From contig DAOLCW010000003.1 of the NCBI GenBank assembly GCA_035327665.1, positions 1,216 to 65,215 of the forward strand: a stretch of DNA of 64,000 nt, read 5' to 3'. Positions 29,689 through 60,365 of this stretch are shown one piece after another. A program made the position numbers and the translations under genes. The stretch's first letter is position 1. The number at the start of each line of letters is the position of its first letter. The DNA comes from Kiritimatiellia bacterium. GTDB lineage: Bacteria; Verrucomicrobiota; Kiritimatiellia; CAIVKH01. The notes under the pieces were generated by a model. That model saw only the letters and a list, made by a program, of their open reading frames with translations, was not told where the DNA came from and made no database searches.

Positions 29689-31155
29689 ATGATCTTTCAT
29701 CCGGGGCGGGATATTTCCTTGCGGCGTGTTTCCCTGTTGAGTGGGGATCTTGTCGCCATTGCCGGTTCGATCTGGTTGTCGGCGATCTTGAGGTTGGGAC
29801 TGGAGGAGGGTAGCGAATACATTCAGAAGCATGTTCCCTCCCTCGTCGGTTCTGCCGGTCTGATCCTTCTTTGTTTCTACGCCGGTGGTATGTACGAGCG
29901 CCAGGCTTTAACCCGCAAAAGCCAAAGTTATCGATTGCCCTTGGTTACGGTGGTTCTCTCCATGATGTTGATTGTCGTGGCGTTTTATGCCAAGGCCGAC
30001 TATCAAATCGGTCGGGGAATTTTGCTGCTTGCGGGAGTGTTTGTATTTCTGGCCTCTTGGTTGATGCGGCACATGTACAGCCTCGCGGTGGGTCAGGGAT
30101 TGCTTTCCAAAAACACCTTGGTGGTCGGTGAAGGCCGCCCGGCTCATGAAGTGGTCCGGTTGATATCCGCCACTCCAGATGCCGGCTTCAAGGTTCTTGG
30201 TGTAGTCTCTAGCAAACGGGTACCTCCGGGAACCTTTGTCGGACCGGTTCCGGTGGTTGGGACCACGGATAGTTTGCGTGAATTGGTGGACGCGTTTGAA
30301 GCAGAAACCGTGGTGGTGGCTTCTTCCATGGCCCGGGAGCCTGCGTTGCTTCGGCTGCTTCGCCCCTTGCGATGCAGTGGCACCGAGGTGTTGGATTACA
30401 TTGCCATTCACGAACTGCTTTCGCAGGAGATCCCCCTGGATCATGTGAATGATGAATGGTTGATGAATGCGGCCATGAACGGTTCGGTCATCCACATCCG
30501 GAAGATCAAACGGATTATGGATGTCGCGGCGGCGGTGGTGGGGCTGATCCTTACCGCTCCGATTCTGCTTGTGGCCGCCGCTTTGGTGCGGGTGGATTCC
30601 CCGGGACCGATTTTGTACCGCCAGCGACGCTCGGGCCTGGACGGACGGGTGTTCACCTTGATCAAGTTCCGGACGATGCGAGAGGATGCGGAATCGGGAA
30701 CAGGGGCGGTCTGGGCGGATGCGCGGGACTCCCGGGTTACTCGAACCGGGCACTTCTTTCGCAAATGGAGAATTGATGAGCTACCGCAACTGTGGAATGT
30801 ATTGAACGGGGACATGAGTCTGGTCGGGCCGCGTCCGGAACGCCCGGAATTTGTGGAAACCCTTTCCTCCGCAATCCCCTTTTACAAGGAGCGTTTGCAT
30901 GTTCCGCCGGGTATTACCGGGTGGGCTCAAGTGAAGTATCCCTACGCAGCGAGTATCGATGCCGCCCGTCGCAAACTTCAGTTTGACCTGTATTACATCA
31001 AGCACATGGGATTTTTTCTGGACACAATGATCGTCCTGCGCACCGTGAAATCCATTCTTGTCGGGCTTCGCCATCATGCCGATGAAGATGCTGGGGGGGG
31101 CTCTACCCGGACGACCTCCCCGGAATCGACGACGGTGTCCAAAGCCCGTGCGTGA
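29689..31155 (+). CDS. exopolysaccharide-initiating polyprenyl-phosphate glycosylphosphotransferase (WbaP/EpsB-type bacterial sugar transferase)
   Basis: 488 aa with N-terminal TM helices. Motifs: KRIMDVAAAVVGLILTAPI, LIKFRTM, DELPQLWNVLNGDMSLVGPRPERPEF. Confidence 0.9.
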   Translation: MIFHPGRDISLRRVSLLSGDLVAIAGSIWLSAILRLGLEEGSEYIQKHVPSLVGSAGLILLCFYAGGMYERQALTRKSQSYRLPLVTVVLSMMLIVVAFYAKADYQIGRGILLLAGVFVFLASWLMRHMYSLAVGQGLLSKNTLVVGEGRPAHEVVRLISATPDAGFKVLGVVSSKRVPPGTFVGPVPVVGTTDSLRELVDAFEAETVVVASSMAREPALLRLLRPLRCSGTEVLDYIAIHELLSQEIPLDHVNDEWLMNAAMNGSVIHIRKIKRIMDVAAAVVGLILTAPILLVAAALVRVDSPGPILYRQRRSGLDGRVFTLIKFRTMREDAESGTGAVWADARDSRVTRTGHFFRKWRIDELPQLWNVLNGDMSLVGPRPERPEFVETLSSAIPFYKERLHVPPGITGWAQVKYPYAASIDAARRKLQFDLYYIKHMGFFLDTMIVLRTVKSILVGLRHHADEDAGGGSTRTTSPESTTVSKARA

Positions 31156-31691
31156 ACATGAGGGAAGAAGACCGGATAGAATCTGTCCTCCCCGTGCCAT
31201 TTGGGGGCCGGGCATGGTGGGTCCTGCATGTGCGACCGCGCTGTGAGAAGAAGGTTGCGGATGCGGTCACGCGTCGGGGTGGACTTTCCTACCTTCCCTT
31301 GCTGACCCGTAAACATCGCTATGGAACCCGTAAACGTATCTATCATGTCCCCCTGTTCCGGGGCTATGTCTTTGCCTTGTTGGACCCAATAAACACCTCG
31401 TGGTGTCGTCAAAACGACCAGGTCGCCAACGTCCTCGAGGTTGCCGATCAACAACCCTTGGTCGATCAGCTTCGCCAGCTTTATCAGGCCTTGGCCGTGG
31501 GGGAAGTCGTTGAGGTTCTGCCCTTCCTTCAAGTGGGTAAACGTGTGCGGATCACGTATGGACCCTTTAAGGATCTGGAAGGACTCGTTGTCCGGGTCAA
31601 GAATTCCACCCGGGTCGTTTTGCAGGTGGAGATGATTCAGCAATCGGTGGTGTTTGAGGCGGATAGCGAGTTGTTGGAGCCGGGGAGTTAA
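31152..31691 (+). CDS. NusG-paralogue transcription antiterminator (UpxY/RfaH-like)
   Basis: 179 aa. NGN-like WWVLHVRPRCEKKV...PLFRGYVF and KOW-like GKRVRITYGPFKDLEGLVVRV. The start (GTG 31152 or ATG 31158) overlaps the upstream stop. Confidence 0.8.
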   Translation: MNMREEDRIESVLPVPFGGRAWWVLHVRPRCEKKVADAVTRRGGLSYLPLLTRKHRYGTRKRIYHVPLFRGYVFALLDPINTSWCRQNDQVANVLEVADQQPLVDQLRQLYQALAVGEVVEVLPFLQVGKRVRITYGPFKDLEGLVVRVKNSTRVVLQVEMIQQSVVFEADSELLEPGS

Positions 31692-34006: not shown

Positions 34007-34138
34007 CCTGTTATGTAGGTTGCCTTCACGATGTGGGCAAGCCTGACAAGTGAGCAAGGCCGGGTTGGGCTCGATCCCGCGAAAGCGGTTCGGGACGCGA
34101 CGGGGACGAAGTCTGCCGCCGCCTATGGCGGCGGAAGA

Positions 34139-34212
34139 GTGACAAGGTGGCAAGGGCAAAGGGTAACAAGGGGGCAGGGGAGCAAGGTATCAAGGGGACA
34201 GAGTGGCAAGAG
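34139..34212 (+). repeat. purine-rich degenerate octamer array (GGCAAGGG / GTAACAAGG / GAGCAAGG words)
   Basis: Read directly from the sequence. A CCGCCGCC-TAT-GGCGGCGG hairpin precedes it at 34116-34134. Segment 34160-34171 is the exact complement of 35484-35495. Confidence 0.85.
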
Positions 34213-34234
34213 AGCAATGTAATGGGCGAGTCCG

Positions 34235-34783
34235 GTGACGTTTCTTGAAATGTTGCAGGTTGCTTCGGATGCCTTCGAAACGGAAGGCGTTCAGTGCTTG
34301 CTGATCGGGGGATTGGCGGTCAATTACCATGGGTATAGCCGCAATACGCAGGATATTGATTTCATGGTGGCAGCGGTTGAACTTGATCGCGCCGATCGCG
34401 CGTTGAGAGATGCTGGATTTTCCAATGTGGAGCGAAGGCCCAACGTCGTTTTTTTCAGAAGGCCCGATGATGACCTGCGGCTGGATGTTCTGCATGTAGA
34501 GGAGGAGACATTCAAACAACTTTGGTCATCTTCTTTAACGATACATCCATCAGGCCATGCCCTTCGAATTCCGTGCCTTGAACATTTACTGGCCATGAAA
34601 CTATTTGCCTTGAAGACCAGTTGGGACCGGCGAGTTGCCAAGGATCTTCCCGACATCGCCAATCTCATCGTGATCAATGGGTTGGATATGAACGCCGTCT
34701 TGCGTCCATTATGTCATCGTTTTGCCGATGAGCAGATCTACGGTCGAATTGCTGATGAAGTGAAAAAGCTTGGCGGGTGCTGA
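34235..34783 (+). CDS. minimal nucleotidyltransferase-fold protein (MNT / DUF6036-like), cassette copy 1
   Basis: 182 aa. NTase signature LIGGLAVNYHGYSRNTQDIDF (GG...DxD). Alternative start at ATG 34250. Confidence 0.6.
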   Translation: MTFLEMLQVASDAFETEGVQCLLIGGLAVNYHGYSRNTQDIDFMVAAVELDRADRALRDAGFSNVERRPNVVFFRRPDDDLRLDVLHVEEETFKQLWSSSLTIHPSGHALRIPCLEHLLAMKLFALKTSWDRRVAKDLPDIANLIVINGLDMNAVLRPLCHRFADEQIYGRIADEVKKLGGC

Positions 34784-34975
34784 ATGAAGTTTGCCACACT
34801 GGATCATCAGGAATCCCCCCCGACAAGGGTGGACTTTATGCGCTGTCTCGAGTTTTGCGATTTCATGCGAACGCTCACGGATACGGAAAAGTTACGCAAG
34901 CAAAAGACGATGGAGAAGCAGATCGAAAAGGCGTTTACGATAAAAGGATGGAACGGGGGCAAGGGAACAAGGTAA
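34784..34975 (+). CDS. small ORF coupled (TGAATG) to NTase copy 1; hypothetical
   Basis: 63 aa. The start directly follows the NTase stop. Its 3' end is encoded by the octamer array, so the coding status is doubtful. Confidence 0.3.
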   Translation: MKFATLDHQESPPTRVDFMRCLEFCDFMRTLTDTEKLRKQKTMEKQIEKAFTIKGWNGGKGTR

Positions 34976-34994
34976 CAATGGAACAGGGGACAAG
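34946..34994 (+). repeat. purine-rich octamer array, second copy
   Basis: GGATGGAACGGGGGCAAGGGAACAAGGTAACAATGGAACAGGGGACAAG. Segment 34958-34972 is the exact complement of 35557-35571. Confidence 0.85.
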
Positions 34995-35022
34995 AAATAC
35001 ATAAATTGAACAAGGAGTGGTC

Positions 35023-35448
35023 ATGGTACAGAAGTTTGAGGAGTTGGATTGCTGGCAGGTAGCTCGGGAGTTGACCCGGGAAGTTTATTCCCTCACCGCA
35101 GGTGATGCTTGTCGAAGAGACTTCGGGTTTGTGGATCAGTTCCGTCGCGCCTCGGTTTCCATCATGAACAATGTCGCGGAAGGTTTTGAGCGGGGATCGG
35201 ATAAAGATTTTGTGAAATTTCTGTATATCGCCCGGGCTTCGGCAGGAGAAGTCCGCAGCATGACCTATGTGGGATTAGACCAAAACTATTTAAGCGAATC
35301 AGACTTCCAGAAATTACAGGATCTCTGCCGTCGTAGTAGCGCCCTGTGCTGGGGTCTCATCAAGAGCAAGAAATCCAATCTTGGCCTTGCCTCCAAACTC
35401 TCCCTGCTTCTCTTCACCGCCCTCATCCCCTTGCTGTATCGGACCTGA
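35023..35448 (+). CDS. four-helix-bundle protein (23S rRNA intervening-sequence protein family; Avd-like fold)
   Basis: Start ATG 35023, preceded by AAGGAG. Family hallmarks: FEELDCWQVARELTREVY, QFRRASVSIMNNVAEGFERGSDKDFVKFLYIARASAGEV. Confidence 0.85.
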   Translation: MVQKFEELDCWQVARELTREVYSLTAGDACRRDFGFVDQFRRASVSIMNNVAEGFERGSDKDFVKFLYIARASAGEVRSMTYVGLDQNYLSESDFQKLQDLCRRSSALCWGLIKSKKSNLGLASKLSLLLFTALIPLLYRT

Positions 35449-35457
35449 CTCTGAGAC

Positions 35458-35600
35458 TCCCTTGCTACCTTTCCCCTTTGCCACCTTGTTACCCTGCTCC
35501 CCCTGCCACCTTGCTACCCTTCTCCCTTGCCACCCTGCACCCTTGCAACCTTGTCCCCTTGTTCCCTTGCCACCTTTCCCCCTTGTAACCCTGTTCCCTT
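35458..35600 (+). repeat. 143-nt pyrimidine-rich octamer array (about 17 NNNCCYTG words), complement of the arrays at 34139-34212 and 34946-34994
   Basis: Reads CCACCTTG TTACCCTG ... CCACCCTG CACCCTTG CAACCTTG TCCCCTTG TTCCCTTG .... It ends 11 nt before the ATG at 35612. Confidence 0.9.
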
Positions 35601-35611
35601 CCTAATCTCCC

Positions 35612-38190: not shown

Positions 38191-39054
38191 ATGATCTTCA
38201 GCAAATTGTTTTCCACTTCAGAGTCCGCTTCCGAGACCCTGACGATTATTGAAGCTCCCAAGGGACTCGTGCCTCTCAATGTCACTGAGTTATGGCGATA
38301 TCGCGAGCTGTTGTATTTCATGTTGTTGCGTGATCTCAAGGCCCGATACAAGCAGTCTGCTTTGGGTCCGTTGTGGATCATCATCAACCCTTTGCTGCAA
38401 ATGGTGGTGTTGACGATTATCTTCGGGACAGTTGCCCAGCTCCCTATGGCGGACATCCCCGCTCCGTTGTTTATTTACTCGGCCATTCTGGCTTGGACGT
38501 TTTTTGAGACCGGCCTCATGCGCACCGCGACCAGCCTGCGGACGACGAAAGATTTGATGTCTAAAGTGTATTTTCCCCGGTTAATTATTCCGATCGTTGG
38601 TTTTATCAGTTCCGCCATCGATTTTTTGATATCCTTTGTCATCCTGATCGGCATGTGTTTCTATTACGGATATATTCCAGGATGGGCCATCTTGACGATC
38701 CCGGGGTTTCTTCTCATGGCCATGGTTCTCGGTCTGGCGATTGGGTTGGCCTTTGCCCCGCCCATCGCCCATTTCTGGGACGTCGGCAATGTGCTTCAGT
38801 ACGTGGTGAAGCTTTTAATGTACTCTTCACCAGTGGTCTACATGGCTACGGAAATTGTCCCCGAGCAATGGCAGACCCTCTACTGGAGCAATCCTCTCGC
38901 CAACATTATTCAAGGGTGCCGGTGGGCCATTCTCGGAACGGAACCCCCGAATTGGTTGATGCTCTTTGCCTCCTTTGCTTTCGTCATTCCCGCATTTTTT
39001 GCCGCAGCCCTTTATTACCGCCGGGCGGAACGCAGCATTGTGGATATAGCGTAG
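38191..39054 (+). CDS. wzm: ABC-2 type polysaccharide export permease
   Basis: 287 aa. LWRYRELLYFMLLRDLKARYKQSALGPLWIIINP signature and six predicted TM segments. Confidence 0.9.
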   Translation: MIFSKLFSTSESASETLTIIEAPKGLVPLNVTELWRYRELLYFMLLRDLKARYKQSALGPLWIIINPLLQMVVLTIIFGTVAQLPMADIPAPLFIYSAILAWTFFETGLMRTATSLRTTKDLMSKVYFPRLIIPIVGFISSAIDFLISFVILIGMCFYYGYIPGWAILTIPGFLLMAMVLGLAIGLAFAPPIAHFWDVGNVLQYVVKLLMYSSPVVYMATEIVPEQWQTLYWSNPLANIIQGCRWAILGTEPPNWLMLFASFAFVIPAFFAAALYYRRAERSIVDIA

Positions 39055-39125
39055 GACGGGATACGAGATACGGGATACGGGATAAGACAAAGACGATGGA
39101 CAATAGGCCATCGACAAAAGACACC
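39055..39125 (+). repeat. purine-rich heptamer array (GGGATAC / GAGATAC words) followed by GACAAAGAC / GATGGAC words
   Basis: Starts at the first base after the wzm stop. Segment 39058-39074 (GGGATACGAGATACGGG) is the exact complement of 40074-40090. Confidence 0.9.
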
Positions 39126-39249
39126 CATGGCCCGCTGACTGTCGACCATTGCCTGTTACCTCTCTTTCCTCGTAAGACGCAACTCGCATCTCTCATTCCA
39201 AATCTCCGGTCCCGTATTCTGAAGCACAAACCACAAATCATGTTTCCCG

Positions 39250-39756
39250 ATGCGTAATCACATCAAAGAAATATTATTCGCGCTTTCTGATGGCGGAGTT
39301 GAATACATTGTCGGGGGAGGGGTTGCCGCAGTGCTTCACGGAGTAGAGCGGGTAACGCTGGATATTGACATCGCCTTGAATCTGACGAAGGAAAACTTGG
39401 GTCGTTTCATTTCCGTTGTCAGTGGATTGGGCATGACGCCTCGGGTTCCTGTACCTCTCCCATCACTCGGAAATCCTGATGTCATTCGCATGATGGTACA
39501 TGAAAAGCATGCGCTGGTATTTTCGCTAATTGATGTGAATGAACCGCTTCGCTATCTTGATGTATTCTTGACCGAAGATTTAGCCTATCCGAATCTGCTC
39601 CCGCATTCCGACGTCGTTGCTATTGATGGTCGCGCTATTCGCATCATCGGGTGCGCGAAATTATTGGCCATAAAAAAGGCAATTCAGCCACCCCGCGACA
39701 AGGATGAATTGGACATTCGGTATTTGGAGAAATTACTTGCAGACAAGGGACTATGA
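39250..39756 (+). CDS. minimal nucleotidyltransferase-fold protein, cassette copy 2
   Basis: 168 aa. IVGGGVAAVLHGVERVTLDIDIA (GG...DxD). Related in layout to 34235..34783 and 58408..59136. Confidence 0.6.
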   Translation: MRNHIKEILFALSDGGVEYIVGGGVAAVLHGVERVTLDIDIALNLTKENLGRFISVVSGLGMTPRVPVPLPSLGNPDVIRMMVHEKHALVFSLIDVNEPLRYLDVFLTEDLAYPNLLPHSDVVAIDGRAIRIIGCAKLLAIKKAIQPPRDKDELDIRYLEKLLADKGL

Positions 39757-39946
39757 TTTCGGCCAAGCCGATGAGTGCGAACAGCTTCGTGCGCTGTTAA
39801 AGTCCTACTCCTCAGCAGACTTTGATGGCCATACCGATTTTGCCCAATTATCACCGTCACAGCGTCTAGACGCCTTGGCCAGTCTCGCGATCTTTATCAA
39901 GGAATGCAAAGGGAAGGCGGCAAAGACGAAAGACAATATGCAATAG
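39704..39946 (+). CDS. small ORF overlapping the 3' end of NTase copy 2; hypothetical partner
   Basis: 80 aa. Contains QLSPSQRLDAL, resembling ELTPEQRWRE in the small ORF next to NTase copy 3. Coding status uncertain. Confidence 0.3.
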   Translation: MNWTFGIWRNYLQTRDYDFGQADECEQLRALLKSYSSADFDGHTDFAQLSPSQRLDALASLAIFIKECKGKAAKTKDNMQ

Positions 39947-40026
39947 ACGAATGATCATAAGCAAAAGACGAAAAACTCTTGTTGCCAATTGCCCATCATC
40001 CATTGCCAATGAACTCTCTGACTACA

Positions 40027-40058
40027 GCACCAAAAACAACCTTCGGTTGTCACGGTGC
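40027..40058 (+). other. conserved leader hairpin, copy 1 (GCACC...GGTGC outer stem)
   Basis: GCACC (40027-40031) AAAAA CAACC-TTC-GGTTG (40037-40049) TCAC GGTGC (40054-40058), followed by GGGGCAAACCC. Confidence 0.55.
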
Positions 40059-40066
40059 GGGGCAAA

Positions 40067-40110
40067 CCCATAACCCGTATCTCGTATCCCGCATCCCGTA
40101 ACCCGGAACC
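40067..40110 (+). repeat. pyrimidine-rich heptamer array (CCCGTAT / CTCGTAT / CCCGCAT words) ahead of wzt
   Basis: Complement of 39055-39085. It ends 13 nt before the wzt ATG. Confidence 0.9.
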
Positions 40111-40123
40111 CGACACACGCCTT

Positions 40124-41368
40124 ATGACTACTGCCATTACTGTCGAAAACTTGAGCAAACGTTACCGGCTGGGCCATGCCGTCAAACGCGCCGGATCGGC
40201 TCGCGAGGCGGTGCGAAATGCCCTTCATGCTCCTTTTCGATATCTCAAATACCGGATGTCAGAAGCGACGGATGAAGATACCTTGTGGGCATGTCGGGAT
40301 ATTTCGTTTGAGGTGAACCAGGGCGAGGTACTTGGGATCATTGGCGCGAATGGCGCGGGAAAGTCCACGCTTTTGAAGATCTTGTCCCGCATTACCGACC
40401 CTACCAAGGGCCGAGCGGTTATCCGCGGGCGAGTCAATGCATTGCTTGAAGTCGGGGTTGGCTTTCATCCCGAGCTGACTGGACGTGAGAACATCTATCT
40501 AAATGCGGCGCTGCACGGATTGAGCGCTCGGGAAACCCGGAGCAAGCTGGACGAAATCGTTGAATTTTCGGGGATCAATCGCTTCCTCGACACGCCGGTC
40601 AAGCGATATTCAAGTGGAATGCGGGTAAGGCTCGGCTTTGCGGTAGCAGCACACTTGGAACCGGAAATTCTCATTGTAGATGAAGTATTGGCCGTCGGGG
40701 ATGTGGCATTCCAAAACAAGTGTTTAGGAAAAATGCAGGATGTCACACAATCCGGTCGAACGGTCATTTTTGTCAGTCACAACATGGCGGCGGTGCAAAA
40801 TTTATGCTCACGAGGAATTCTGTTGCGCCATGGCGGGGTCGCTCTTGCCGGAGCCATTCATGATGTGGTGGAGGAGTACCTCAAAGTTACCACGCCTTCA
40901 GTTGGTATCGCGCCGGTTCAATCCGGATTTGCTTCGCTTAAGTTAACCTTGACGCATCCTGAAGGTCATGAGCAGCATGTCTTTCTTATGGGGGATGGAG
41001 TGGTGTTTCGCCTCGAGTTAAGTGTGGATCGTCCTATTCAGAATGCAGACGTCGGGTTGGTCCTGGTGAACACGCAAGGGGTGAGAATTCTCACTTTTCA
41101 TACGAAATACCAAGCCTCGGCCAAGTTCGCGGTGGACCAGACCGCAACCCTCGTCATGACGTGGCCGGAAATTTCGCTCAATGCAGGTGTGTATAACATT
41201 TATGCCGCCTTGGATGAGCATGGTAAACCCGTTGCGACCTGGCCTTCGATCGGCAGGCTGGAGGTCGCCGGAGCAGATTATTATGGGACCGGCAAGTTGC
41301 CGGACCCTCATTCACACGGAGTTATGCTTGCTCGATCAGAGTGGACGGTAGCATCAGACCGAACCTAA
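40124..41368 (+). CDS. wzt: polysaccharide export ABC transporter ATP-binding protein with C-terminal glycan-binding-type extension
   Basis: Start moved to ATG 40124 (MTTAITVENLSKRY). Walker A GANGAGKST, signature YSSGMRVRLGFA, Walker B ILIVDEVLAVGD, plus a ~170-aa C-terminal domain. Confidence 0.9.
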   Translation: MTTAITVENLSKRYRLGHAVKRAGSAREAVRNALHAPFRYLKYRMSEATDEDTLWACRDISFEVNQGEVLGIIGANGAGKSTLLKILSRITDPTKGRAVIRGRVNALLEVGVGFHPELTGRENIYLNAALHGLSARETRSKLDEIVEFSGINRFLDTPVKRYSSGMRVRLGFAVAAHLEPEILIVDEVLAVGDVAFQNKCLGKMQDVTQSGRTVIFVSHNMAAVQNLCSRGILLRHGGVALAGAIHDVVEEYLKVTTPSVGIAPVQSGFASLKLTLTHPEGHEQHVFLMGDGVVFRLELSVDRPIQNADVGLVLVNTQGVRILTFHTKYQASAKFAVDQTATLVMTWPEISLNAGVYNIYAALDEHGKPVATWPSIGRLEVAGADYYGTGKLPDPHSHGVMLARSEWTVASDRT

Positions 41369-44955: not shown

Positions 44956-45777
44956 ATGAAGAAGGGTCGAACATCTTTCGTGAGAACGAAGCAAGCAGCC
45001 TTGCTTTTCGGTTTCTTGTTGGCTGTGATGGTGAGCCTCGGTTGGCGCTTCATGGGGGGACCACCGACGATTTTGTTTCTCGGTGACAGCAATACCGAAT
45101 CACGTTGGTTCGCGGAAGAGCTTCATGCGATCTTTACCGAGCGGGTCGGCGAGGCTTCGCCGAGACTCATTCTTCGTGGCCGGGGCGGGGAAACCTTGTC
45201 CGGATTGAGTGAAGCTCAATTTCCCGGCGATCGTCCTGATGTTTTTCAGCGATTGAGCCGTGAACTTCGCCGATGGCGTCCGACGTGGGTTGTCGGCTGG
45301 TACGGGATGAACGACGGGCTTTTTCAACCGTTCGATCAGGAACGCTTTTTAATGTTTCAAGATGGTTTGAATCGATTTGCCGATACAATTCTCGCCTCCG
45401 GGGCTCAATTGATTCTGCTGACCCCTCCGTTGTTTGCCCGCCCCGGCCGCGACATGCCCAATGACCCTCAGTCCCGGCGACGTCAGGTTGAAACGGACCA
45501 CTCCCACGCCCGAACCAAGCTTGCGGCCGAGCCTGCCCGGTATGGATATTTTTCTCCCTACATGTATTATGATGATGTCCTCACAATCTATGCCGACTGG
45601 ATGAAGGAAATGGGTGAGCGTGAGAAGGTGTGGGTGCTCGATATCCGGACTCCATTGATGGAGAATCTGGACAAAGCCTACGATCTGGAAGATCGCGTTC
45701 ATCCCAATCGCGTCGGCCATCGTATCATCGCTGAGACATTTCTGAACGCATGGAAAGAAATAAGCGATGGGCGATAG
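44956..45777 (+). CDS. SGNH/GDSL-family hydrolase
   Basis: Start ATG 44956. Block I ILFLGDSNTE, block III YGMNDG, block V DRVHPN. N-terminal TM or signal segment. Confidence 0.8.
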   Translation: MKKGRTSFVRTKQAALLFGFLLAVMVSLGWRFMGGPPTILFLGDSNTESRWFAEELHAIFTERVGEASPRLILRGRGGETLSGLSEAQFPGDRPDVFQRLSRELRRWRPTWVVGWYGMNDGLFQPFDQERFLMFQDGLNRFADTILASGAQLILLTPPLFARPGRDMPNDPQSRRRQVETDHSHARTKLAAEPARYGYFSPYMYYDDVLTIYADWMKEMGEREKVWVLDIRTPLMENLDKAYDLEDRVHPNRVGHRIIAETFLNAWKEISDGR

Positions 45778-45779
45778 AC

Positions 45780-46014
45780 GATCGACGATGGACAAAAGAC
45801 ACAAAGCGAACGAAGACTGACGACGACGAGCGAAAGACGATGGGCTGTTCGACCTCGGACTTCTGACGACTGACTTCAGGCTTCCCATTTCCGGCTTGAT
45901 TCCTCAACCCGCATCCCCTGCACCAGAGACGGCCTGCGGCCACGGTGCAGAGCAAGCCCCGGCACCCGAATCCCATCGCGTATCCCGCATTGCGTTTCCC
46001 ACATCCCGTACATC
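45780..46014 (+). repeat. composite word-repeat spacer (GACAAAAGAC-type words, leader hairpin copy 2 at 45918-45950, CCCGTAT-type heptamers to the ATG)
   Basis: CTGCACC (45918-45924) AGAGAC GGCC-TGC-GGCC (45931-45941) AC GGTGCAG (45944-45950). The heptamer run 45964-46010 ends ...GTACATC ATG. Confidence 0.8.
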
Positions 46015-47257: not shown

Positions 47258-49054
47258 ATGGCAACGCTTGCTATGATTGCGGTGATTACCCGAGAACATG
47301 AGGGACACCAGGTTCGGGCCCGTCTTCACGAGATGGCTGACGGCTTCAACGAGTTGATTCTGGTAGATGACGGAGTTGGGGCCTCTCTTGATCCTTTGAT
47401 CAAGGATCTAACGGAATGTTATGCATGTTTACGGGTCGTGCGCTACAGGAAACCGGCATTTTACCTTGGCTCCTGGAAGCCTCTCGTCGATGAACTCACA
47501 TCCGAGTTGGTCACCTTTTTGTCGCCATGCCTGATCCTTCGTCCGGATTATTACCGCCGAACGCTTGCCGCGTTCGAGCAACATCCAGCCTGCCGTTTGG
47601 CGTTTGGTGGAATCACGAATGGGGTGTATTCGGATGAAGTTTCCCAATTCGCTGAATCGGATGTTCACCGAATCAACCGCGAAAATTTCATCGACATGAT
47701 ACTTGCAACCACGGGCGCGCAAGGTTCCACGCCCGCGACTGCTGTTTTTCGTCGGGCAGACTTCATTGAATCGGGAGGTTTCCGATGGGAACTCGCAGGA
47801 GGGCATGGTTGGCCTCCCTTTTTAATCATCGGTTTGGGCGACGGAGCCATCTATCTCGGGGATGAATGCGGGATACGCCTTGGGGAGGATTGGTTCCCGG
47901 CGGTGTATGGCGAGACGCGTCCCCTTCGCGTATTGGATGATCTGGCCCGGATGCATCATGTGGTCAATGGTTACCATGCTACGGATGCCGTCGGCAAATG
48001 GCATCAGCGGATGAAAGACGCCTATATACATCATGTCTGCGAGCAGATTCACGCTCCCGCGATTCGCGTCAATAAAACCATGGATGCACTGTATGGGCCT
48101 GGTGGGCCCCGTCGTGGTCTTCTGGTGGCGATGGCCCAGCGCATGGTGGGATTATGTCGCAGGATCTTGGCAGGACGGATGTCGGTGACCCTGTGCGGGT
48201 ACAAGCCGGATGTGGAATGTTATGGGTGGATCAAGCCATCCTTTTCGTTCGGGGTTAATTGGCGCAACTTTATCCGGTCGAAGTACAATGAAGACCGGGT
48301 CGTGATCGCTCAACAAGATCTTCTGGATTTTCTGGAGGTCAAGAATTTTTCGGGAATGCGAGTGATGGATATCGGCTGTGGCAGTGGGATTCATTCGTTG
48401 GCAGCTTTACGCGCGGGCGCTGACGAATTGGTTTCGTTTGATTATGACTCGGCTTCCGTTGAGGCGACCCGGCGGCTTTTTGAGGATGAGGGTTCCCCTT
48501 CGCGATGGACCGTTTCGCAGGGCTCCGTACTCGATCCGGAGTTTATGGGGCGTCTTGCTCCCGCAGATCTCGTGTACTCCTGGGGTGTTCTTCACCATAC
48601 CGGACAGATGTGGGAGGCGGTGAAGGCTGCTGCACAACGAATGAAGCCCGATGGACTATTGTTTATTGCGTTGTACACCAAATGGCCGGGATCGGATGAT
48701 GCGGTACGTTTGAAGATCCGCTACAATCGGGCCGGATGGTTCCGGAAGCGCTGGATGGAGATGGTTCTGATGCGGGCCGGGGTGCCGGGAATATCTTATT
48801 TGTTTAAGGACCCCGGATTTTTCCTGGATCGACTGAAAGATAAGCTGACCTTGATTCGAACCTACCGCAAATTCCGCGGAATGAGTTTCTATCATGATAT
48901 TGTGGATTGGTTGGGGGGATATCCCTACGAAGATGCGACGGTGGAAGAAGTGGTATGGTTTTGTAAAACATTCTGTGCATTGACTCCGGTCAAGGTGCGA
49001 GATCGCGGTGGAAATCTGTGCTCCTACTATCTTTTCCGGAAGGGCAAGACGTGA
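47258..49054 (+). CDS. fusion protein: N-terminal GT2-like glycosyltransferase domain and C-terminal class I SAM methyltransferase domain
   Basis: Start ATG 47258, preceded by GGAGGAGG. N-terminal IAVITREHEG...LILVDDG, C-terminal MRVMDIGCGSGIHSLAALRAGADELVSFDYD. Confidence 0.7.
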   Translation: MATLAMIAVITREHEGHQVRARLHEMADGFNELILVDDGVGASLDPLIKDLTECYACLRVVRYRKPAFYLGSWKPLVDELTSELVTFLSPCLILRPDYYRRTLAAFEQHPACRLAFGGITNGVYSDEVSQFAESDVHRINRENFIDMILATTGAQGSTPATAVFRRADFIESGGFRWELAGGHGWPPFLIIGLGDGAIYLGDECGIRLGEDWFPAVYGETRPLRVLDDLARMHHVVNGYHATDAVGKWHQRMKDAYIHHVCEQIHAPAIRVNKTMDALYGPGGPRRGLLVAMAQRMVGLCRRILAGRMSVTLCGYKPDVECYGWIKPSFSFGVNWRNFIRSKYNEDRVVIAQQDLLDFLEVKNFSGMRVMDIGCGSGIHSLAALRAGADELVSFDYDSASVEATRRLFEDEGSPSRWTVSQGSVLDPEFMGRLAPADLVYSWGVLHHTGQMWEAVKAAAQRMKPDGLLFIALYTKWPGSDDAVRLKIRYNRAGWFRKRWMEMVLMRAGVPGISYLFKDPGFFLDRLKDKLTLIRTYRKFRGMSFYHDIVDWLGGYPYEDATVEEVVWFCKTFCALTPVKVRDRGGNLCSYYLFRKGKT

Positions 49055-49164
49055 CGCAACGCGGTGTTTCACCGCGTTGCGAACGTGGCAGCCCCGTTTG
49101 GATGCGGCTCCGCCGCATCCATCACGGCCGCGAAGCGGCGGATTATTCACGTTCGTGAATAATC
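49055..49164 (+). other. three consecutive perfect palindromic hairpins directly after the stop codon
   Basis: 12-bp stem at 49055-49081 (CGCAACGCGGTG TTT CACCGCGTTGCG). 10-bp stem at 49099-49121 (TGGATGCGGC TCC GCCGCATCCA). 24-nt palindrome at 49141-49164 (GATTATTCACGTTCGTGAATAATC). None has a U-tract. Confidence 0.85.
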
Positions 49165-49222
49165 AGGGCTAACCTTCTGATCTTGTCGTGTCCTGACCCC
49201 ATAACCCTCCTTTTTCCTGATT

Positions 49223-51013: not shown

Positions 51014-51513
51014 AGACGGAGGAGCGCAGACGAAAGAAAGACTGAAGACGGAGGATGGTTGTCGATAAAGTTTACGACAAAGCTTCCGACAAAGATGGGA
51101 AATGGGGAACAAGGTAGCAAGGTTGCAAGGGTTCAGGGGAAGTGATTCAGTATCCCAAACTTTGTGTTGAACTTAATCCTGTTGCGGTATGGGGGACAAA
51201 GTATGACCGAATACGAGTAGACGACGTGTGACCACGTTGCCACCTTGCACCCTTGTTACCCTGCACCCTTTTCACCTATGCTTCGCTCCGAAGACGGAGC
51301 TTCCACCGTTGACCTCCGGGCTATGGCGGACAAGACGCAGGGCAAGCCAAGAACCAAGCACCAAACACTCGTATCCCCAGCACCAGAGACTCCCTTCGGT
51401 CGTCGCGGTGCGGGGCAGGCCCGAATCCCGTATCCCGCAACCCGCATCCCGTATCTCGTAACCCGAATCCCGTATCCCGCATCTCGTATCCCGTATCTCG
51501 CATCCCGCCCCCC
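51014..51513 (+). repeat. dispersed composite intergenic element, copy 1 (full length)
   Basis: Order along the element: CGACAAAG words, purine octamer arm (51095-51140), unique core (51141-51235), pyrimidine arm (51236-51272). Then GCTCCG-AAGA-CGGAGC hairpin, 24-mer 51321-51344, leader hairpin 51380-51411, and 12 heptamers (51427-51510) up to the ATG. Confidence 0.85.
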
Positions 51514-52929: not shown

Positions 52930-52984
52930 TGTGAAGGGATAAAGACGGAATCTCGCGCGGTAACCGCGAAACAAACGTCCTATT

Positions 52985-53500
52985 TTCAACACGGAGTGCA
53001 CGGAGGACACGGAGAAAGACAGAATGAAATCCTCTCCGTGGTCTCTGTGTTCTTCAGCGAAGCGGATGGTAGAATAAAGTTCAGATACGAAGACTTCCGA
53101 AGATCCGCATTGAAACAATGTTTTTCACCACGGAGTGCACGAAGGACGCGGAGAAAAAACAGAATGAAATCCTCTCCGTGGTCTCTGTGTTCTCCAGCGA
53201 AGCGGGTGGTAGAATCAAATTCCGATACGAAGACTTCCGAAGATCCGTATTGAAAAGATATTCTCCACCACGGAGTGCAAGGGGGACACGGAGAAAAAAC
53301 AGAATAAAATCCTCTCCGTGGGCTCTGTGTTCTCCAGCGAAGCGGGTGGTAGAATAAAGTTCCGATACGAAGACTTCCGAAGATCCGTATTGAAAAGATA
53401 TTATTTACCACGGAGTGCAAGGGGGACACGGAGAAAAAGCAGAATAAAATCCTCTTCGTGGTCTCTGTGCCCTCCAGCGAAGCGGGTGGTAGAATTAAGA
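52985..53500 (+). repeat. tandem array of about 3.7 units of a 139-140 bp repeat, each unit containing a long hairpin
   Basis: ACGGAGTGCA anchors at 52991, 53130, 53270 and 53410. In unit 1, CACGGAGA (53008-53015) pairs with TCTCCGTG (53033-53040), extendable with G-U pairs. Confidence 0.9.
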
Positions 53501-56752: not shown

Positions 56753-57807
56753 TGAGTTTCGGGCAAACCGAGCAAATGCCAAGCATTTCAGTGGTAATGG
56801 CCACGCACAACGGCGAGCGATACCTGTCGCAGGCATTAGACAGCATGGCGGCCCAAACCTACACGAACTGGGAGTGGGTGCTGGTGGATGATGGCTCCAC
56901 TGACAACTCGCCAGAGATCCTCACCCTGTTTCGAAAACGATTTCCAGGACGCGTACACGTTCTTCGCAATGAGCAGAACCGGGGGTTGACCGCGTCGTTG
57001 AACCGGGGACTCTCCGTTGCCCGGGGACAGTTTATTGCCCGGATGGATGATGATGACCTTGCTCACCCCGAGCGTTTGGCCCGACAAGTCGAGGCGATGA
57101 TCAAGGATCCGGATGTATTGCTTCTTGGTACAGCTGCTAACCGGCTAGACGAGAAAACCGGCTCAACATCGCCGTTCATGGCATGCTTCGATTCCGTCCG
57201 ACTCCGGATCAATTTGTGCTGGTTTAATCCAATCATGCATGCCTCGGTGATGTTCCGGCGTCTCGCTCCCGACGGATCGCCCTTCCGGTACAATGAAGGG
57301 TTTACCACCGCCCAGGATTATGAGTTATGGACCCGGATGAGCGGGATGGGGAAGCTCGCCGTTTTGGACATCCCGCTCATGACCCATCGTTTGCGAGCCA
57401 AAAGTATCACCGGCTCTCGCCGCCAACATCAATTGGACATGACCCGCGAGGTCAGCGAAGCCTACACCTCCCGCTTGCTGGGGGACGGTCCACTTGCCGC
57501 CAGTTCCCCGGGCGATTTGCGAGAGTGGATCGATGACCGTTCTCTTCCTGATATCCTGCGGCTAAAACGGGTGCGCGACCTGTTTCGTGTCGTGTCGGAT
57601 GTACCCTGGTTGGGCCGGTCGGCTGGCCAGCAGGCTTTTGCATGTTGGGCCGAGGCGTTGCTGGAGGGTCAACGGTGGACCGATTTGTGGATGGGGGATG
57701 CCGGTCGGCTCCTTCGGGCTTGCGGATGGGCGGGAGCGGGCTATCTGGTCCGCCGGGCGGGGAGGAGGGCGATGGTCGATGGACAAAAGACAATGGCCGA
57801 TGGGTGA
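56749..57807 (+). CDS. glycosyltransferase family 2
   Basis: Start ATG 56749 (ATGATGA overlap with the upstream stop). ISVVMATHNGERYLSQALDSMAAQTYTNWEWVLVDDGSTD, ARMDDDD. Confidence 0.85.
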   Translation: MMSFGQTEQMPSISVVMATHNGERYLSQALDSMAAQTYTNWEWVLVDDGSTDNSPEILTLFRKRFPGRVHVLRNEQNRGLTASLNRGLSVARGQFIARMDDDDLAHPERLARQVEAMIKDPDVLLLGTAANRLDEKTGSTSPFMACFDSVRLRINLCWFNPIMHASVMFRRLAPDGSPFRYNEGFTTAQDYELWTRMSGMGKLAVLDIPLMTHRLRAKSITGSRRQHQLDMTREVSEAYTSRLLGDGPLAASSPGDLREWIDDRSLPDILRLKRVRDLFRVVSDVPWLGRSAGQQAFACWAEALLEGQRWTDLWMGDAGRLLRACGWAGAGYLVRRAGRRAMVDGQKTMADG

Positions 57808-57859
57808 TGGACAGATTAGTTCGGGCGAACCCTCTGGGTGAGCCGCTAGGCAATCGTCG

Positions 57860-58230
57860 ATAGGCGATAGGCTATAGACGGATCAGGGATGTCGACAAGG
57901 CTTGCGACAAAGCTACCGACAAAGATGGGAATGGGGGGACAAGGTAGCAAGGTCGCAGGGGTACAGGGGGAGTGACTGCGTTTCCCAAACGTTGTGTTGA
58001 ATGTAGTCCTGAACAGTGTAGGCGACTACGTGTGACCAGCGTGTTCCCTTGCCACCTTGCTCCCTTGTTACCCTTCCCCCTTTTCACCCATGCTTCGCTC
58101 CGCGGACGGAGCTTCCGCCGTCGTCCGGCGGATGCCGGACTATGGCGGACAAGACGCAGGGCAGGCAAAGCACGAAGCACTCTTATCCCGTATCCCGCAT
58201 CTCGGATCTCGTATCCCGTCGCCGCACAAA
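57860..58230 (+). repeat. dispersed composite intergenic element, copy 2
   Basis: Colinear with 51061-51440. Shared anchors include CCGACAAAGATGGGA, CCCAAAC(T/G)TTGTGTTGAA, ATGCTTCGCTCCG. The 24-mer CTATGGCGGACAAGACGCAGGGCA is identical at 58140-58163 and 51321-51344. Confidence 0.85.
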
Positions 58231-58407: not shown

Positions 58408-59136
58408 ATGCCGAACCCGATACTCAAAGTCCTTTCCACGTTAAACGACCACGAGGTAAAGTATTTGCTCATGGGGGGGCAGGCGTGCGTCTATTACGGC
58501 GCGGCGGAGTTTAGCCGCGATACCGATGTGGCGCTTTTATAAAGCCGGGAAAATGTTGAGCGCCTGAAGGATGCGCTCCGTGTGTTGCAGGCGAAAGTCA
58601 TTGCGGTTCCCCCCATGGACGTGTCTCTGCTGGAAAAAGGGCATGCTATCCATTTCCGATGCAACCATCCTGATGCGGAGGGCATGCGTTTGGATGTCAT
58701 GTCGGTGATGCGAAACCTGCCCGGGTTCGACACGTTATGGCGGCGAAGAACGACTGCGGAAGTCGAGGGCCATACCATCGAATTGTTGTCGCTTCCGGAT
58801 TTGATCACCGCGAAAAAAACCCAGCGCGACAAGGATTTGCCCATGATCAGGAGACTCGTGGAAGCCCATTATGTGAATTTTGCCGCGGAGCCCACGGTTG
58901 AGCGGGAGGACTTTTGGTTGCGTGAATGCCGTACGCCGGACTTATTGCGTGATCTGGTAAGGTTATTTCCTGGATCGATTCATCGGGTCGAAAAGGCGAG
59001 GCCTTTTCTTGCATCGATTGCATCCATGACCGAGGAAGACATCGAAAAGGCTTTGTTTGAGGAAGAAGCGCACGAGCGGGCAAGCGATAAAGCCTATTGG
59101 AAGCCCTTGCGGGACGAATTGGAGCAGATTCGGTAA
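58408..59136 (+). pseudogene. minimal nucleotidyltransferase-fold gene, cassette copy 3, interrupted by one in-frame TAA (58540-58542)
   Basis: ATG 58408 gives MPNPILKVLSTLNDHEVKYLLMGGQACVYYGAAEFSRDTDVALL, then TAA. The same frame continues SRENVERLKDAL... into track ORF 58582..59136. Overlapping upstream ORF 58251/58287..58514 encodes WYELTPEQRWRESEKL. Confidence 0.6.
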
Positions 59137-59149
59137 GGTTGGTAGGTGT

Positions 59150-59470
59150 TGGGTGAAAGACAGAAGACGAAAGACAATAGACGGATCAGGGATGTCGACA
59201 AAGCTTGCGACAAAGCTCCCGACAAAGATGGGAAATGGGGGACAAGACGCAGGGCAAGCCCTTCGACAAGCTTCCTCCTTCGTCCGGCAGTTGCCGGACT
59301 ACGGCGGACTGATCGCAGGGTAAACCAAGCACGAAGCACCCACCTTCGCCGAGGCTACGGCGGGCAGGCCAAGCACGCGGCGAAGTCGCATCCCGAATCT
59401 CGCACCTGTCCTGCGAAGCCTCGGCGAAGCAGGATCCCGCATCCCGTAACCCGCCACACCCGATCTACTT
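59150..59470 (+). repeat. dispersed composite intergenic element, copy 3 (internally deleted), plus a 13-bp inverted repeat
   Basis: TAGACGGATCAGGGATGTCGACAA is shared with copy 2. GGGGGACAAG is joined directly to ACGCAGGGCAAGCC (59237-59260). CTTCGCCGAGGCT (59344-59356) pairs with AGCCTCGGCGAAG (59417-59429). Confidence 0.8.
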
Positions 59471-59502: not shown

Positions 59503-59736
59503 ATGAAAACGCTATCCGTAGGGAAGTTTAAATCTGAATTTTCCAAGATCCTGGAAAGTGTGGCCAAGGGTAATCCGGTGGCCATTTCGTACGGTCGAAA
59601 GCATGCGCCGGTGGCCATGATGATCCCGTATCCGCAAAAGGCCGGAGAACGCAAGCTGGGTGTCATGGAGGGGCGCGCAGGTTATGCATGGAAAGAGGAT
59701 GGGAAAATCAGCGATGAAGAACTTCTCCGATCATGA
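59503..59736 (+). CDS. type II antitoxin (Phd/YefM-like)
   Basis: 77 aa. MKTLSVGKFKSEFSKILESVAKGNPVAISYGRK.... Its stop overlaps the toxin ATG as ATGA. Confidence 0.7.
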   Translation: MKTLSVGKFKSEFSKILESVAKGNPVAISYGRKHAPVAMMIPYPQKAGERKLGVMEGRAGYAWKEDGKISDEELLRS

Positions 59737-60137
59737 ATCTCCTGCTCGATAGCCATTCCTTGATCTGGGCCGTGTGTGATGCGAAATAATTTCCGCGGGA
59801 CGTGTTCGCCGAACTGAAAAAGCCATCGAATGCGGTGTTCATCAGCGCGGTATGCTTGTGGGAAATTTCCCTGAAGTTTGCCCTTGGCAAGCTGAGCCTC
59901 GATCAAATTACCCCCGATGCCTTGCGCCTCTCCGCGGTTGACATGGGTTTTGCGTTGATGCCTTTGCTGCCGGAAGAAGCCTCCGGTTTCGACAACTTAC
60001 CTCGATCCGGTCACAAGGATTCGTTTGACCGGATGCTGGTGTGGCAGGCCATTCACAACAAGCATCAGTTCGTGTCCTGCGATGCCGCGCTGGATGTTTA
60101 CAAGGTACAAGGCCTGAAGCGCTTTTGGCCGGAGTAA
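59733..60137 (+). pseudogene. vapC: PIN-domain VapC toxin gene interrupted by one in-frame TAA (59787-59789)
   Basis: ATG 59733 gives MNLLLDSHSLIWAVCDAK, then TAA. The same frame continues FPRDVFAELKK...SAVCLWEISLKFALGKL...HKDSFDRMLVWQA...SCD, so all PIN acidic positions are present. Confidence 0.75.
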
Positions 60138-60283
60138 GTGCGATGGGCGAAGGACGGATGACAATAGACGATAGACCATGGCCGATGGACGAGAGGCCGA
60201 ATAATGGGTCAATCGTTCTGATGAATCTCGTTTGCCCAACAACCAGTCGTTGACGATAGCAAGAAAAGCTGCTCTACCGGCCA

Positions 60284-60365
60284 TTCCCGTAACCCGTATC
60301 CCCCATATCCCGAATCCAGAATCCCGCATCCCGTATCTCGCATCTCGTAACCCGTATCCCGCATC
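60284..60365 (+). repeat. pyrimidine-rich CCCGTAT-type heptamer array running to the start codon
   Basis: ...AACCCGT ATCCCCC .. ATCCCGA ATCCAGA ATCCCGC ATCCCGT ATCTCGC ATCTCGT AACCCGT ATCCCGC ATC, then the ATG at 60366. Confidence 0.9.

Follow-up and report, generated by a model that had tools for sequence, protein, structure and literature searches.

What brackets the spacer between wzm and wzt, the genes for the permease and the ATPase of a glycan exporter? In the 64,000-nt stretch of contig DAOLCW010000003.1 from a Kiritimatiellia bacterium analyzed here (the window), a minimal nucleotidyltransferase (NTase) gene and a small open reading frame (ORF) lie between these two genes, and an inverted repeat made of heptamer words stands at both edges of the spacer. 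An earlier, sequence-only reading of the window had proposed that the arms of this repeat are either the termini of a mobile cassette or the two sides of an RNA stem that loops the cassette out of the operon transcript. Comparison within the window and with its relatives indicates that the arms are ordinary members of a heptamer simple-sequence array family found across the lineage (CCCGYAT, complement GGGATRC), two copies in opposed orientation, and not cassette-specific termini. We regard this account of the identity and history of the arrays as very probable.

The gene ends and the repeat itself were as first described, with one small correction. The wzm stop codon (TAG) occupies positions 39052-39054 and the wzt ATG begins at 40124, giving a Wzt N-terminus (MTTAITVENLSKRY) that agrees with those of the relatives. 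The claimed perfect 17-nt inverted repeat was present (39058-39074, GGGATACGAGATACGGG, is the exact reverse complement of 40074-40090), and its exact run proved to be 18 nt long (39057-39074/40074-40091), extending to 25 nt at 92% and to 29 nt at 86%. Both arms were detected as period-7 arrays by Tandem Repeats Finder (TRF), in line with the heptamer build reported for them; for the left arm, the program returned 39056-39084, with 4.1 copies of ACGGGAT. The left arm begins 1-4 nt past the wzm stop codon; 11-13 nt separate the end of the right array from the wzt ATG. The weaker complementary pair described just inside the arms (39086-39126 against 39976-40015) was also found, though it is modest: its duplex free energy was -20.0 kcal/mol, compared with -11.5 ± 3.0 kcal/mol for shuffled sequences, approximately 1% of which reached the same value.

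At least eight arrays of the CCCGYAT/GGGATRC family were found in the 64 kb, all of them in the spacers of plus-strand genes. Seven are C-rich on the sense strand, and the left arm is the only sense-strand G-rich copy in the window. The pool of C-rich units comprised CCCGTAT (8), CCCGCAT (6), CCCGAAT (3), and CTCG variants. The other CCCGYAT arrays (at least six besides the right arm) mostly stop 1-11 nt before the next start codon. When the window and its relatives were taken together, 7 of the 12 strict C-rich arrays preceded the ATG of a long ORF (six ending within 11 nt of it and one at 57 nt), and two of the three sense G-rich arrays began at a wzm stop.

The left arm paired better with arrays 11-21 kb distant than with its supposed partner. 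Its best complements were 51467-51494 (27 of 28 positions) and 58181-58212 (29 of 32), whereas the nominal partner matched at only 23 of 25. The duplex free energy was -42.7 kcal/mol with the cognate array and -52.9, -57.9 (58184-58219), and -45.2 kcal/mol with three non-cognate arrays. Exact complementary runs of 17-18 nt were also formed with arrays of another genome, L083. As a chance control, arrays of four and six units were assembled by random draws from the heptamers that make up the other arrays of the window, and an exact complementary run of at least 17 nt was obtained in 22% of 20,000 trials. Thus, an 18-nt inverted repeat within 1.4 kb, virtually impossible in random sequence, is expected given two opposed arrays of this family. 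Because 22% of the resampled pairs reached at least 17 nt, the complementarity is not special; the non-random element is the presence of an opposite-orientation family copy immediately past the wzm stop. The sequence-only reading had itself named two results that would speak against it, and both were obtained: long complementarity between resampled arrays, and arrays that stand without a complementary partner (51420-51507 and 60285-60365).

Relatives were collected by Wzm scans of GTDB and metagenomes, which yielded two close relatives (L001 and L083; the remaining matches were at most 47% identical and uninformative), and through homologues of the NTase and of a 23S rRNA intervening sequence protein (IVP, PF05635) encoded elsewhere in the window. 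One locus, L082, was 100% identical to the window. The Wzm proteins of the window, L081, L083, L163, and L001 were 73-82% identical in a star-like pattern. The empty wzm-wzt sites that the sequence-only reading suggested looking for were found in L001, an uncultured Verrucomicrobiota metagenome-assembled genome with a gap of approximately 40 nt, and in L173, with a spacer of 54 nt; neither contains the module or the arrays. The NTase occupies the same place as in the window in L081 (87% identical), L083 (73%), and L163 (69%). L163 has the NTase and the small ORF in the wzm-wzt spacer, with translational coupling of the NTase to wzm through overlapping stop and start codons (TAATG); intact arrays are absent, with one decayed array before wzt. 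In L083, GGGATAC repeated 3.9 times follows directly after the wzm stop and is succeeded by purine words and their complement, a 14-copy CCCGYAT array ends 14 nt 5′ of the NTase ATG, an AGACCGA array of 13.6 copies lies past the module, and a second CCCGYAT array (8.9 copies) precedes wzt. The small ORF-wzt spacer of L083 also holds a GC-rich insert of approximately 300 nt (2570-2850) with near-complementary ends (cccatgattcactgattgag / ggtcagtgaatcggggatgcgccc), which is absent from the window.

L081, which has the closest NTase, shows the same architecture built from another word: GTGCTTG/GGTGCTT past the wzm stop, with arrays of CAAGCAC/CACGAAG ahead of both the NTase and wzt. Its first bracket encloses a broken PF05635 gene. 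The pre-wzt arrays of L081 and of the window are in register and both end in CACGCCTTATG, and the right array of the window is likewise in register with those before wzt in L083, L163 (decayed), and L178. The last of these has a different permease (Wzm only 27-29% identical), from whose stop GGGATGC is repeated 6.6 times; approximately 185 nt of other sequence follow, then a CCCGYAT array ending 8 nt before wzt, and the module is absent. In L169, the module stands in another glycan cluster, and the contig ends within a GACGACC array. Taken together, convergent inverted pairs of the family were found in the window (39056/40067), in L083 (1546/1681), and twice in L178 (10717/10948 and 11154/11247). 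This distribution identifies the module as a long-standing occupant of the wzm-wzt spacer, where four lineages have it; the arrays belong to the lineage and to positions within spacers rather than to the module.

These comparisons bear directly on the proposal that a non-autonomous mobile cassette entered between wzm and wzt and that the arrays are its terminal inverted repeats. The empty junctions of L001 and L173 agree with it, as do the 34-nt direct repeat (79%) just within the arms and the nature of the enclosed genes, because NTase and toxin-antitoxin-like genes are typical selfish cargo. The arms, however, are generic arrays that also precede ordinary glycosyltransferase genes, the left arm prefers non-cognate arrays, and arms and module occur separately: the module is found without intact arms in L163 and in another context in L169, the arms are found without the module in L178, and in L083 the partner of the G-rich arm lies before the NTase. 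No direct repeat that could represent a target-site duplication was found outside the arms, and no adjoining transposase or integrase was seen. An NTase paralogue at 34235-34783 is just 27% identical, so multiple copies of one element are not present. Moreover, four of the five lineages with an orthologous Wzm hold the module at the same site, which favors ancestry and loss. We reject the mobile cassette as very improbable. An integron/attC reading, suggested by co-directional ORFs with imperfect palindromes between them, was rejected without running an attC model, on synteny (relatives share the order of the conserved flanking pathway genes) and because the arms consist of tandem arrays.

How an inverted repeat came to span the module is suggested by L083. 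There, the G-rich arm has its partner in the pre-NTase array (fold z = -4.6), and the stem closes before the NTase. Positions 39170-39249 of the window align in register with the 14-copy CCCGYAT array of L083 and are the decayed remnant of a proximal array of that type. In an L083-like ancestor, the post-wzm G-rich array would have paired with a C-rich array directly before the NTase; because the proximal array has decayed in the window, the pre-wzt array is now the best partner, and the predicted stem happens to span the module. The cassette-spanning inverted repeat of the window is, on this evidence, a derived state, an accident of proximal-array decay, and not a conserved design.

Does such a stem form in RNA? 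When the region 39040-40140 was folded, a check of the kind that the sequence-only reading had advised, the arms were paired in the minimum free energy (MFE) structure (39056-39081 with 40074-40099, one unit off the register of the perfect 18-mer). The ensemble pairing probability of the left arm was 0.72 with the distal partner and 0.14 with the local partner. The two spacers folded with z = -5.0 once the module had been taken out, and in the fold of 39055-39249 the left arm paired locally with the decayed array (z = -2.6). Among the window, L083, and L178, every type of left arm paired with every right array (-43 to -93 kcal/mol). With the right arrays of L081, by contrast, the left arms of the window and L083 hardly paired (-7 to -21 kcal/mol) and the longer L178 arm paired weakly (-20 to -25 kcal/mol), whereas the left arm of L081 paired with its own right arrays at -50 and -66 kcal/mol. 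Thus, both arms have changed together in L081, which points either to selection for pairing or to homogenization of all arrays within a genome.

An RNA stem presupposes that both arms are transcribed together. From approximately 26 to 61 kb, the genes of the window form a co-directional cluster for polysaccharide, in the order Wza; Wzz/kinase; initiating sugar transferase; NusG paralogue; FkbM methyltransferase; MarR; Wzy_C protein; AlgX; wzm; wzt; and methyltransferases and glycosyltransferases. The NusG paralogue stands at the head of the array-rich cluster, as the same gene does in L081 and L173, and its position suggests RfaH/UpxY-like processive antitermination of the glycan operon. Scans for sigma-70 promoters and intrinsic terminators found none on the plus strand between wzm and wzt and no excess over shuffled sequences, a result that is uninformative for non-sigma-70 promoters.

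One form of the RNA reading is a dedicated device: the NTase module would be held out of the operon transcript as a loop, RNase III would cut the stem as in an rRNA intervening sequence, and wzm and wzt would be rejoined functionally at the stem base. The long-range stem of the MFE structure fits such a device, and its base brings the wzm stop (4 nt away) close to the wzt start (approximately 25 nt away). Further support comes from IVP genes: a broken 23S_rRNA_IVP gene lies within the L081 bracket of the same spacer, and in the window, L170, L173, and L174, complementary CAAGG/CCTTG arrays flank the IVP gene that stands between MarR and Wzy_C, the broken L081 copy being bracketed by arrays of the GTGCTTG/CAAGCAC type (duplex z = -3.2 to -5.7 over the five loci). 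Cleavage of a heptamer-array hairpin by RNase III also has a precedent in hmw1A, discussed below. The L083 stem, however, closes before the NTase, and L163 has the module without a stem. Because the window still has a decayed proximal arm, the stem encloses the module as a derived condition and not by design. RNase III cutting, moreover, would part the wzm and wzt RNAs, not splice them.

Intervening sequences of 23S rRNA that carry a PF05635 ORF occur in Leptospira, Coxiella, and other bacteria. The resemblance lies in a small-ORF insert between complementary arms that pair into a stem within a longer transcript, and PF05635 genes at 35017-35448 of the window and in the wzm-wzt spacer of L081 are so bracketed. 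The wzm-wzt insert differs in that it lies between protein-coding genes and not in rRNA, its cargo is an NTase and not an IVP, and its arms are generic; a basal stem is predicted here also, but excision would not rejoin the mRNA. A dedicated loop-out device is, in our judgment, quite unlikely. The RNA reading of the earlier note was upheld in part: pairing of the arms in a long operon transcript is consistent with the MFE structure (probability approximately 0.72), with the lack of terminator- or sigma-70-like sites on the plus strand, with the NusG paralogue, with the L081 bracket made of another word, and with hmw1A, but looping out of the cassette is best seen as an accident of proximal-array decay.

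The explanation that we favor separates the arrays from the module. The arrays of the lineage occupy fixed positions between the genes of a long co-directional glycan operon, at whose head stands the NusG paralogue, the G-rich version running on the sense strand from the stop of the upstream gene and the C-rich version running up to a downstream start that lacks a Shine-Dalgarno (SD) sequence. No SD-like motif was found at 21 of the 23 gene starts between 24.8 and 60.4 kb, and the leaders are G-poor. In the polycistronic RNA, the G-rich trailer arm would pair with the C-rich leader arm to form a long imperfect stem. Such a stem could hide the G-poor, SD-less initiation region of the downstream gene until the ribosome ending at the upstream stop melts the arm. 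Alternatively, or in addition, it could be cut by RNase III, as in the hmw1A heptamer-array hairpin. In either case, downstream expression and mRNA stability would be tuned. We put this RNA-level mechanism forward as a tentative proposal; the explanation as a whole, with the history of the arrays at its core, is on balance probable.

Several observations weigh against a role for pairing. The local alternative partner of the left arm (-30.7 kcal/mol) would form first during transcription, and ribosomes translating the NTase would cross the loop of the stem. Most C-rich arrays of the window have no G-rich partner in their own spacer, and three array spacers folded no better than shuffled sequences (45778-46014, z = +1.1; 51014-51513, z = 0.1; 60138-60365, z = +1.6), so pairing cannot be the general function of the arrays. 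Co-transcription of the arrays in one long operon RNA is itself only inferred, from the NusG paralogue, the co-directionality, and the lack of terminator- and promoter-like sites. In addition, because nearly all genes lie on one strand, the orientation of the arrays to genes is inseparable from their orientation to replication in the material covered, which comprises 64 kb of this genome and a handful of relatives.

Two published systems resemble the favored mechanism in part. In the 5′-UTR of Haemophilus influenzae hmw1A, a hairpin forms between an (ATCTTTC)n array and a G-rich arm, and its cleavage by RNase III modulates expression (Rapun-Araiz et al. 2025, PMC12721329); this is the sole experimentally shown mechanism of the heptamer-array-hairpin type. 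As in hmw1A, a pyrimidine-rich heptamer array stands 5′ of a surface-structure gene and has a G-rich partner arm with which it forms a long hairpin, here in silico only. The hmw1A arms are adjacent in one 5′-UTR, and the repeat is homogeneous and phase-varying, whereas the arrays of the window are degenerate and the G-rich arm is a mirror array past the upstream stop. Direct repeats of TAACTGA occur just 5′ of starts in Beggiatoaceae, Cyanobacteria, and Bacteroidetes, for which a role in translation has been proposed (MacGregor 2015, PMC4679880). They share with the present arrays the position of heptamers a few nucleotides from the starts of genes without canonical ribosome-binding sites, but they use another word, are nearly all direct repeats (one inverted set in 170), and have no trailer-arm partner.

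The closest known counterparts of the arrays themselves are the G-rich heptamer arrays of Xanthomonas (GGGAATC, generalized as (GGGANTN)n) and Nostoc (GGGGA(C/T)T), which occur as 70-75 convergent inverted pairs per genome with stem-loop potential, form G-quadruplexes (G4) in vitro, and have no known function (Rehm et al. 2015, PMC4692102). The present arrays share with them tandem heterogeneous G3-tract heptamers, many dispersed intergenic copies between co-directional ORFs, quick turnover among close relatives, and frequent convergent inverted pairs. They also follow the same strand rule, with the G-rich strand coding within 50 bp past a stop and non-coding within 50 bp before a start. They differ in belonging to a Verrucomicrobiota-type phylum, in GGGATAC having A at position 6 where (GGGANTN) has T, and in a wider set of co-occurring words (AAGCACG, CAAGGNNN, CGACAAAGCTNN, and AGACCGA). 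Moreover, the pair described here is 1 kb apart with two genes inside, and its left arm has no fourth G-tract. A literature search found no account of such arrays in Verrucomicrobia, which is not proof that none exists.

Another possible explanation is that the arrays act at the DNA level, through G-quadruplexes, i-motifs, or cruciforms that affect transcription or replication, or that they are functionless products of slippage and strand-biased mutation, the RNA stem being incidental in either case. Four C-rich arrays, the right arm (40088-40111) among them, have a canonical motif of four G3N4 units on their antisense strand, and the arrays of Xanthomonas and Nostoc form G4 in vitro with no function found there. 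The unpartnered arrays, the spacers that fold like shuffles, and the fast turnover of copy number and words between relatives also fit this alternative. The left arm, on the other hand, has three GGG tracts and a GAG in the window and likewise three GGG tracts in L083, which rules out a canonical G-quadruplex motif for it. Both L081 arms switched word together, and the fixed strand of the arrays, a few nucleotides from stop and start codons, suggests constraint at the transcript level. Arrays are also kept at equivalent positions even though Wzy_C is approximately 64% identical and even where Wzm is non-orthologous (27-29%), as in L178. A DNA-level or functionless origin is rather unlikely in our view.

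In a further alternative, units of a G-array, a loop, and a C-array, together with larger composite spacers, would be copy-and-paste palindromic elements resembling miniature inverted-repeat transposable elements (MITEs), Rickettsia palindromic elements (RPEs), or the bacterial interspersed mosaic elements (BIMEs), with the NTase module merely lying between pieces. The spacers of the cluster are mosaics of short tandem words in recurrent order: GACAA/GACGA past stops; CGACAAAGCTNN three times; CAAGGNNN with the complementary CCTTGNNN; AAGCACG; and CCCGYAT abutting the ATG. Two composite spacers (51040-51380 and 57870-58190), which both hold a CAAGG/CCTTG hairpin and the threefold CGACAAAGCTNN words (the latter also at 33346 and 59196), are 83% identical over approximately 330 nt; thus, whole mosaic spacers act as dispersed repeats. 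The right flank of the wzm-wzt spacer (40025-40113) is 81% identical over 89 nt to 51378-51466, the 3′ part of a composite spacer, and is more weakly similar to 45920-46008. The same bracket is present at the non-orthologous wzm/wzt pair of L178.

Rickettsia palindromic elements insert in frame into coding genes, and L178 has a comparable case inside its wzt ORF, where a 183-nt pair of opposed arrays (11154-11336; ATGCGGG, 7.7 copies, then CCCGGAT, 10.9 copies) adds 61 residues in frame before Walker A. The REP and BIME sequences of enterobacterial operons are dispersed imperfect palindromes in co-transcribed spacers, which form RNA hairpins that affect mRNA stability. Both differ from the present arrays in being unit-length palindromes and not tandem heptamer arrays, and no sequence similarity was found. 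Neither target-site duplications nor defined ends were identified, no candidate transposase was found, the number and order of units differ at every site, and gene conversion between arrays fits the same data. Palindromic elements of this kind are an unlikely explanation. A block of approximately 45 nt within the shared right flank (40028-40070) is predicted to form a hairpin and was considered as a covarying structure; it was rejected because RNAalifold on three copies gave zero compensatory pairs.

The enclosed genes described in the sequence-only reading are present (Table 1). The NTase matched DUF2204 below the cut-off (E = 7e-4; 19.7 against 20.3 bits) and had 262 homologues, mostly from Verrucomicrobiota-type metagenome sequences; some are annotated as AbiEii/AbiGii or as predicted nucleotidyltransferases, and some have precomputed PF08843 or PF09970 assignments. 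A sequence search of the PDB and a PADLOC search gave no match for the NTase. The C-terminal 50 or so residues of the small ORF, with the motif D[FY]DGHTDFxxLSPSQRLDALASLxxF[IV]xxxKG, are conserved in five lineages (the window, L081, L083, L163, and L169), which argues that it is a real gene; it had no family match in Pfam, NCBIfam, or PADLOC. A toxin-antitoxin partner of the AbiE (type IV) or MNT-HEPN (type VII) kind (an AbiEi helix-turn-helix or HEPN protein) was not found, the small ORF having no family match and its conserved motif no Rx4-6H. The wzm product had no match in a Pfam search and matched the NCBIfam models Wzm/RfbD (E = 1.7e-13) and KpsM (E = 2e-12), both under the cut-off. The GACAA/GACGA module past the left arm is a direct repeat of 39921-39954 (39088-39121, 79% over 34 nt), and similar words follow other stops (45760-45830, 57770-57880, 59140-59190, and 60140-60200). 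No Rfam match was found in 38.9-40.3 kb at E ≤ 1, and none in the region at the gathering threshold.

Table 1 Features of the wzm-wzt spacer and its surroundings, in positions of the window
Feature	Position	Strand	Evidence
NusG paralogue heading the array-rich co-directional cluster	31152-31691	+	Pfam NusG, E 1.4e-9, and KOW
wzm (ABC-2 type glycan export permease)	38191-39054	+	ORF; NCBIfam Wzm/RfbD, KpsM weak
Left arm, G-rich heptamer array (GGGATAC, ~4 copies), sense strand, directly 3′ of wzm stop	39055-39085	+	TRF
Purine-rich GACAA/GACGA word module with small hairpin (CGATGG...CCATCG, 39094-39113)	39086-39125	+	
Decayed CCCGYAT array 5′ of NTase start	39170-39249	+	Alignment to L083 array
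Minimal NTase, 168 aa	39250-39756	+	Pfam DUF2204 sub-threshold; homologues
Small ORF overlapping the NTase 3′ end	39704-39946 (start uncertain; conserved part ~39790-39946)	+	
Purine-rich word array, including and running past the small-ORF stop	39920-39975	+	TRF, period 21, 2.6 copies; direct repeat of 39088-39121
Inner pyrimidine-type words (TTGCCAATTGCCCATCATCCATTGCCAAT), weak complement of 39086-39126	39976-40015	+	
Block common to two other spacers (CAGCACCA...CGGTGCGGGGCA)	40025-40066	+	
Right arm, C-rich heptamer array (CCCGYAT, ~6 copies)	40067-40112	+	TRF 40065-40112 (CCCGTAT type); regular expression
wzt (ABC ATPase with Wzt_C domain)	40124-41368	+	Pfam ABC_tran, E 3.6e-23; Wzt_C, E 5.2e-8
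Same-family C-rich array, ends 4 nt before glycosyltransferase ATG (46015)	45974-46010	+	
Same-family C-rich array, 12.6 copies, ends 6 nt before ATG at 51514	51420-51507	+	TRF
Same-family C-rich array	58184-58219	+	TRF
Same-family CCCGYAT array	59392-59456	+	
Same-family C-rich array, abuts ATG at 60366	60285-60365	+	TRF

Other parts of the cluster held further unusual spacers. Between 31152 and 32449, the NusG paralogue (NusG and KOW domains) is followed by a non-coding leader of approximately 760 nt and then by the FkbM methyltransferase gene. The interval between MarR and Wzy_C (34007-35611) contains the second NTase (34235-34783, NTP_transf_5/AbiEii), a small ORF (34784-34975), and the PF05635 gene (35017-35448), which has CAAGGNNN arrays on its 5′ side and CCTTGNNN arrays on its 3′ side. 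This bracket and the order MarR-IVP-Wzy_C are kept in four lineages (the window; L170, 2152-3091; L173, 2326-3069; and L174, 2325-3053), with IVPs 79-85% identical and duplex z values of -4.3 to -5.7. A 23-nt non-coding block in the same interval (CGGGACGCGACGGGGACGAAGTC; window 34091-34113, L081 5866-5888, and also L170, L173, and L174) was invariant in five lineages, in which Wzy_C is merely 56-80% identical. It is mostly followed by a GC-rich hairpin that differs in sequence between genomes, and it had no Rfam match; it may act as a regulatory RNA or be bound by the MarR protein or the NusG paralogue.

Two further ORFs in array-rich spacers look like pseudogenized genes of the toxin-antitoxin type: a third NTase-like ORF (58408-59136) with an in-frame TAA at 58540-58542, and a PIN-domain (VapC-like) ORF (59733-60137), 3′ of a Phd-like antitoxin gene (59503-59736), with an in-frame TAA at 59787-59789. 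A 140-nt unit, made of the complementary words CACGGAG and CTCCGTG and repeated 3.7 times in tandem (52983-53499, 91% matches), fills the spacer ahead of the gene at 53542. The sole Rfam match at gathering score, AaHKsRNA22 (Aggregatibacter sRNA 22; 49046-49180, 41.4 against a cut-off of 39.8 bits), also falls within a spacer; the taxonomic distance makes it a probable false positive.

A broader role is hinted at by the CAAGG/CCTTG bracket that four lineages share around the IVP gene and by the joint switch of both arms in L081. Complementary word arrays might form a general RNA-level system of insulation and coupling in the NusG-paralogue-dependent glycan operon of a Planctomycetes-Verrucomicrobia-Chlamydiae (PVC) lineage. 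Their stems would be cut by RNase III or melted by ribosomes, and embedded small genes (the NTase and its partner, PF05635 four-helix-bundle proteins, and toxin-antitoxin pairs) would sit in loops without uncoupling the flanking pathway genes. Such a system would parallel, in mRNA, the intervening sequences of rRNA, and the PF05635 protein might act on the stems. We offer this extension as a speculation that is more probably wrong than right by a wide measure.

Had the spacer between wzm and wzt been a literal mobile cassette or a dedicated RNA loop-out, it would have represented a new kind of element; it does not appear to be either. Instead, the finding adds an uncultured Verrucomicrobiota-type lineage to Xanthomonas and Nostoc as bearers of heptamer arrays that lie near stops and starts and include inverted pairs. 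Here, the arrays are unusually dense, use several words, show concerted arm change between relatives, and lie in an operon of genes without SD sequences. They also break short-read assemblies, as in L169, whose contig stops inside an array. The cluster thus provides a compact test bed for whether such arrays act as RNA stems, in processing or translational coupling, or at the DNA level.

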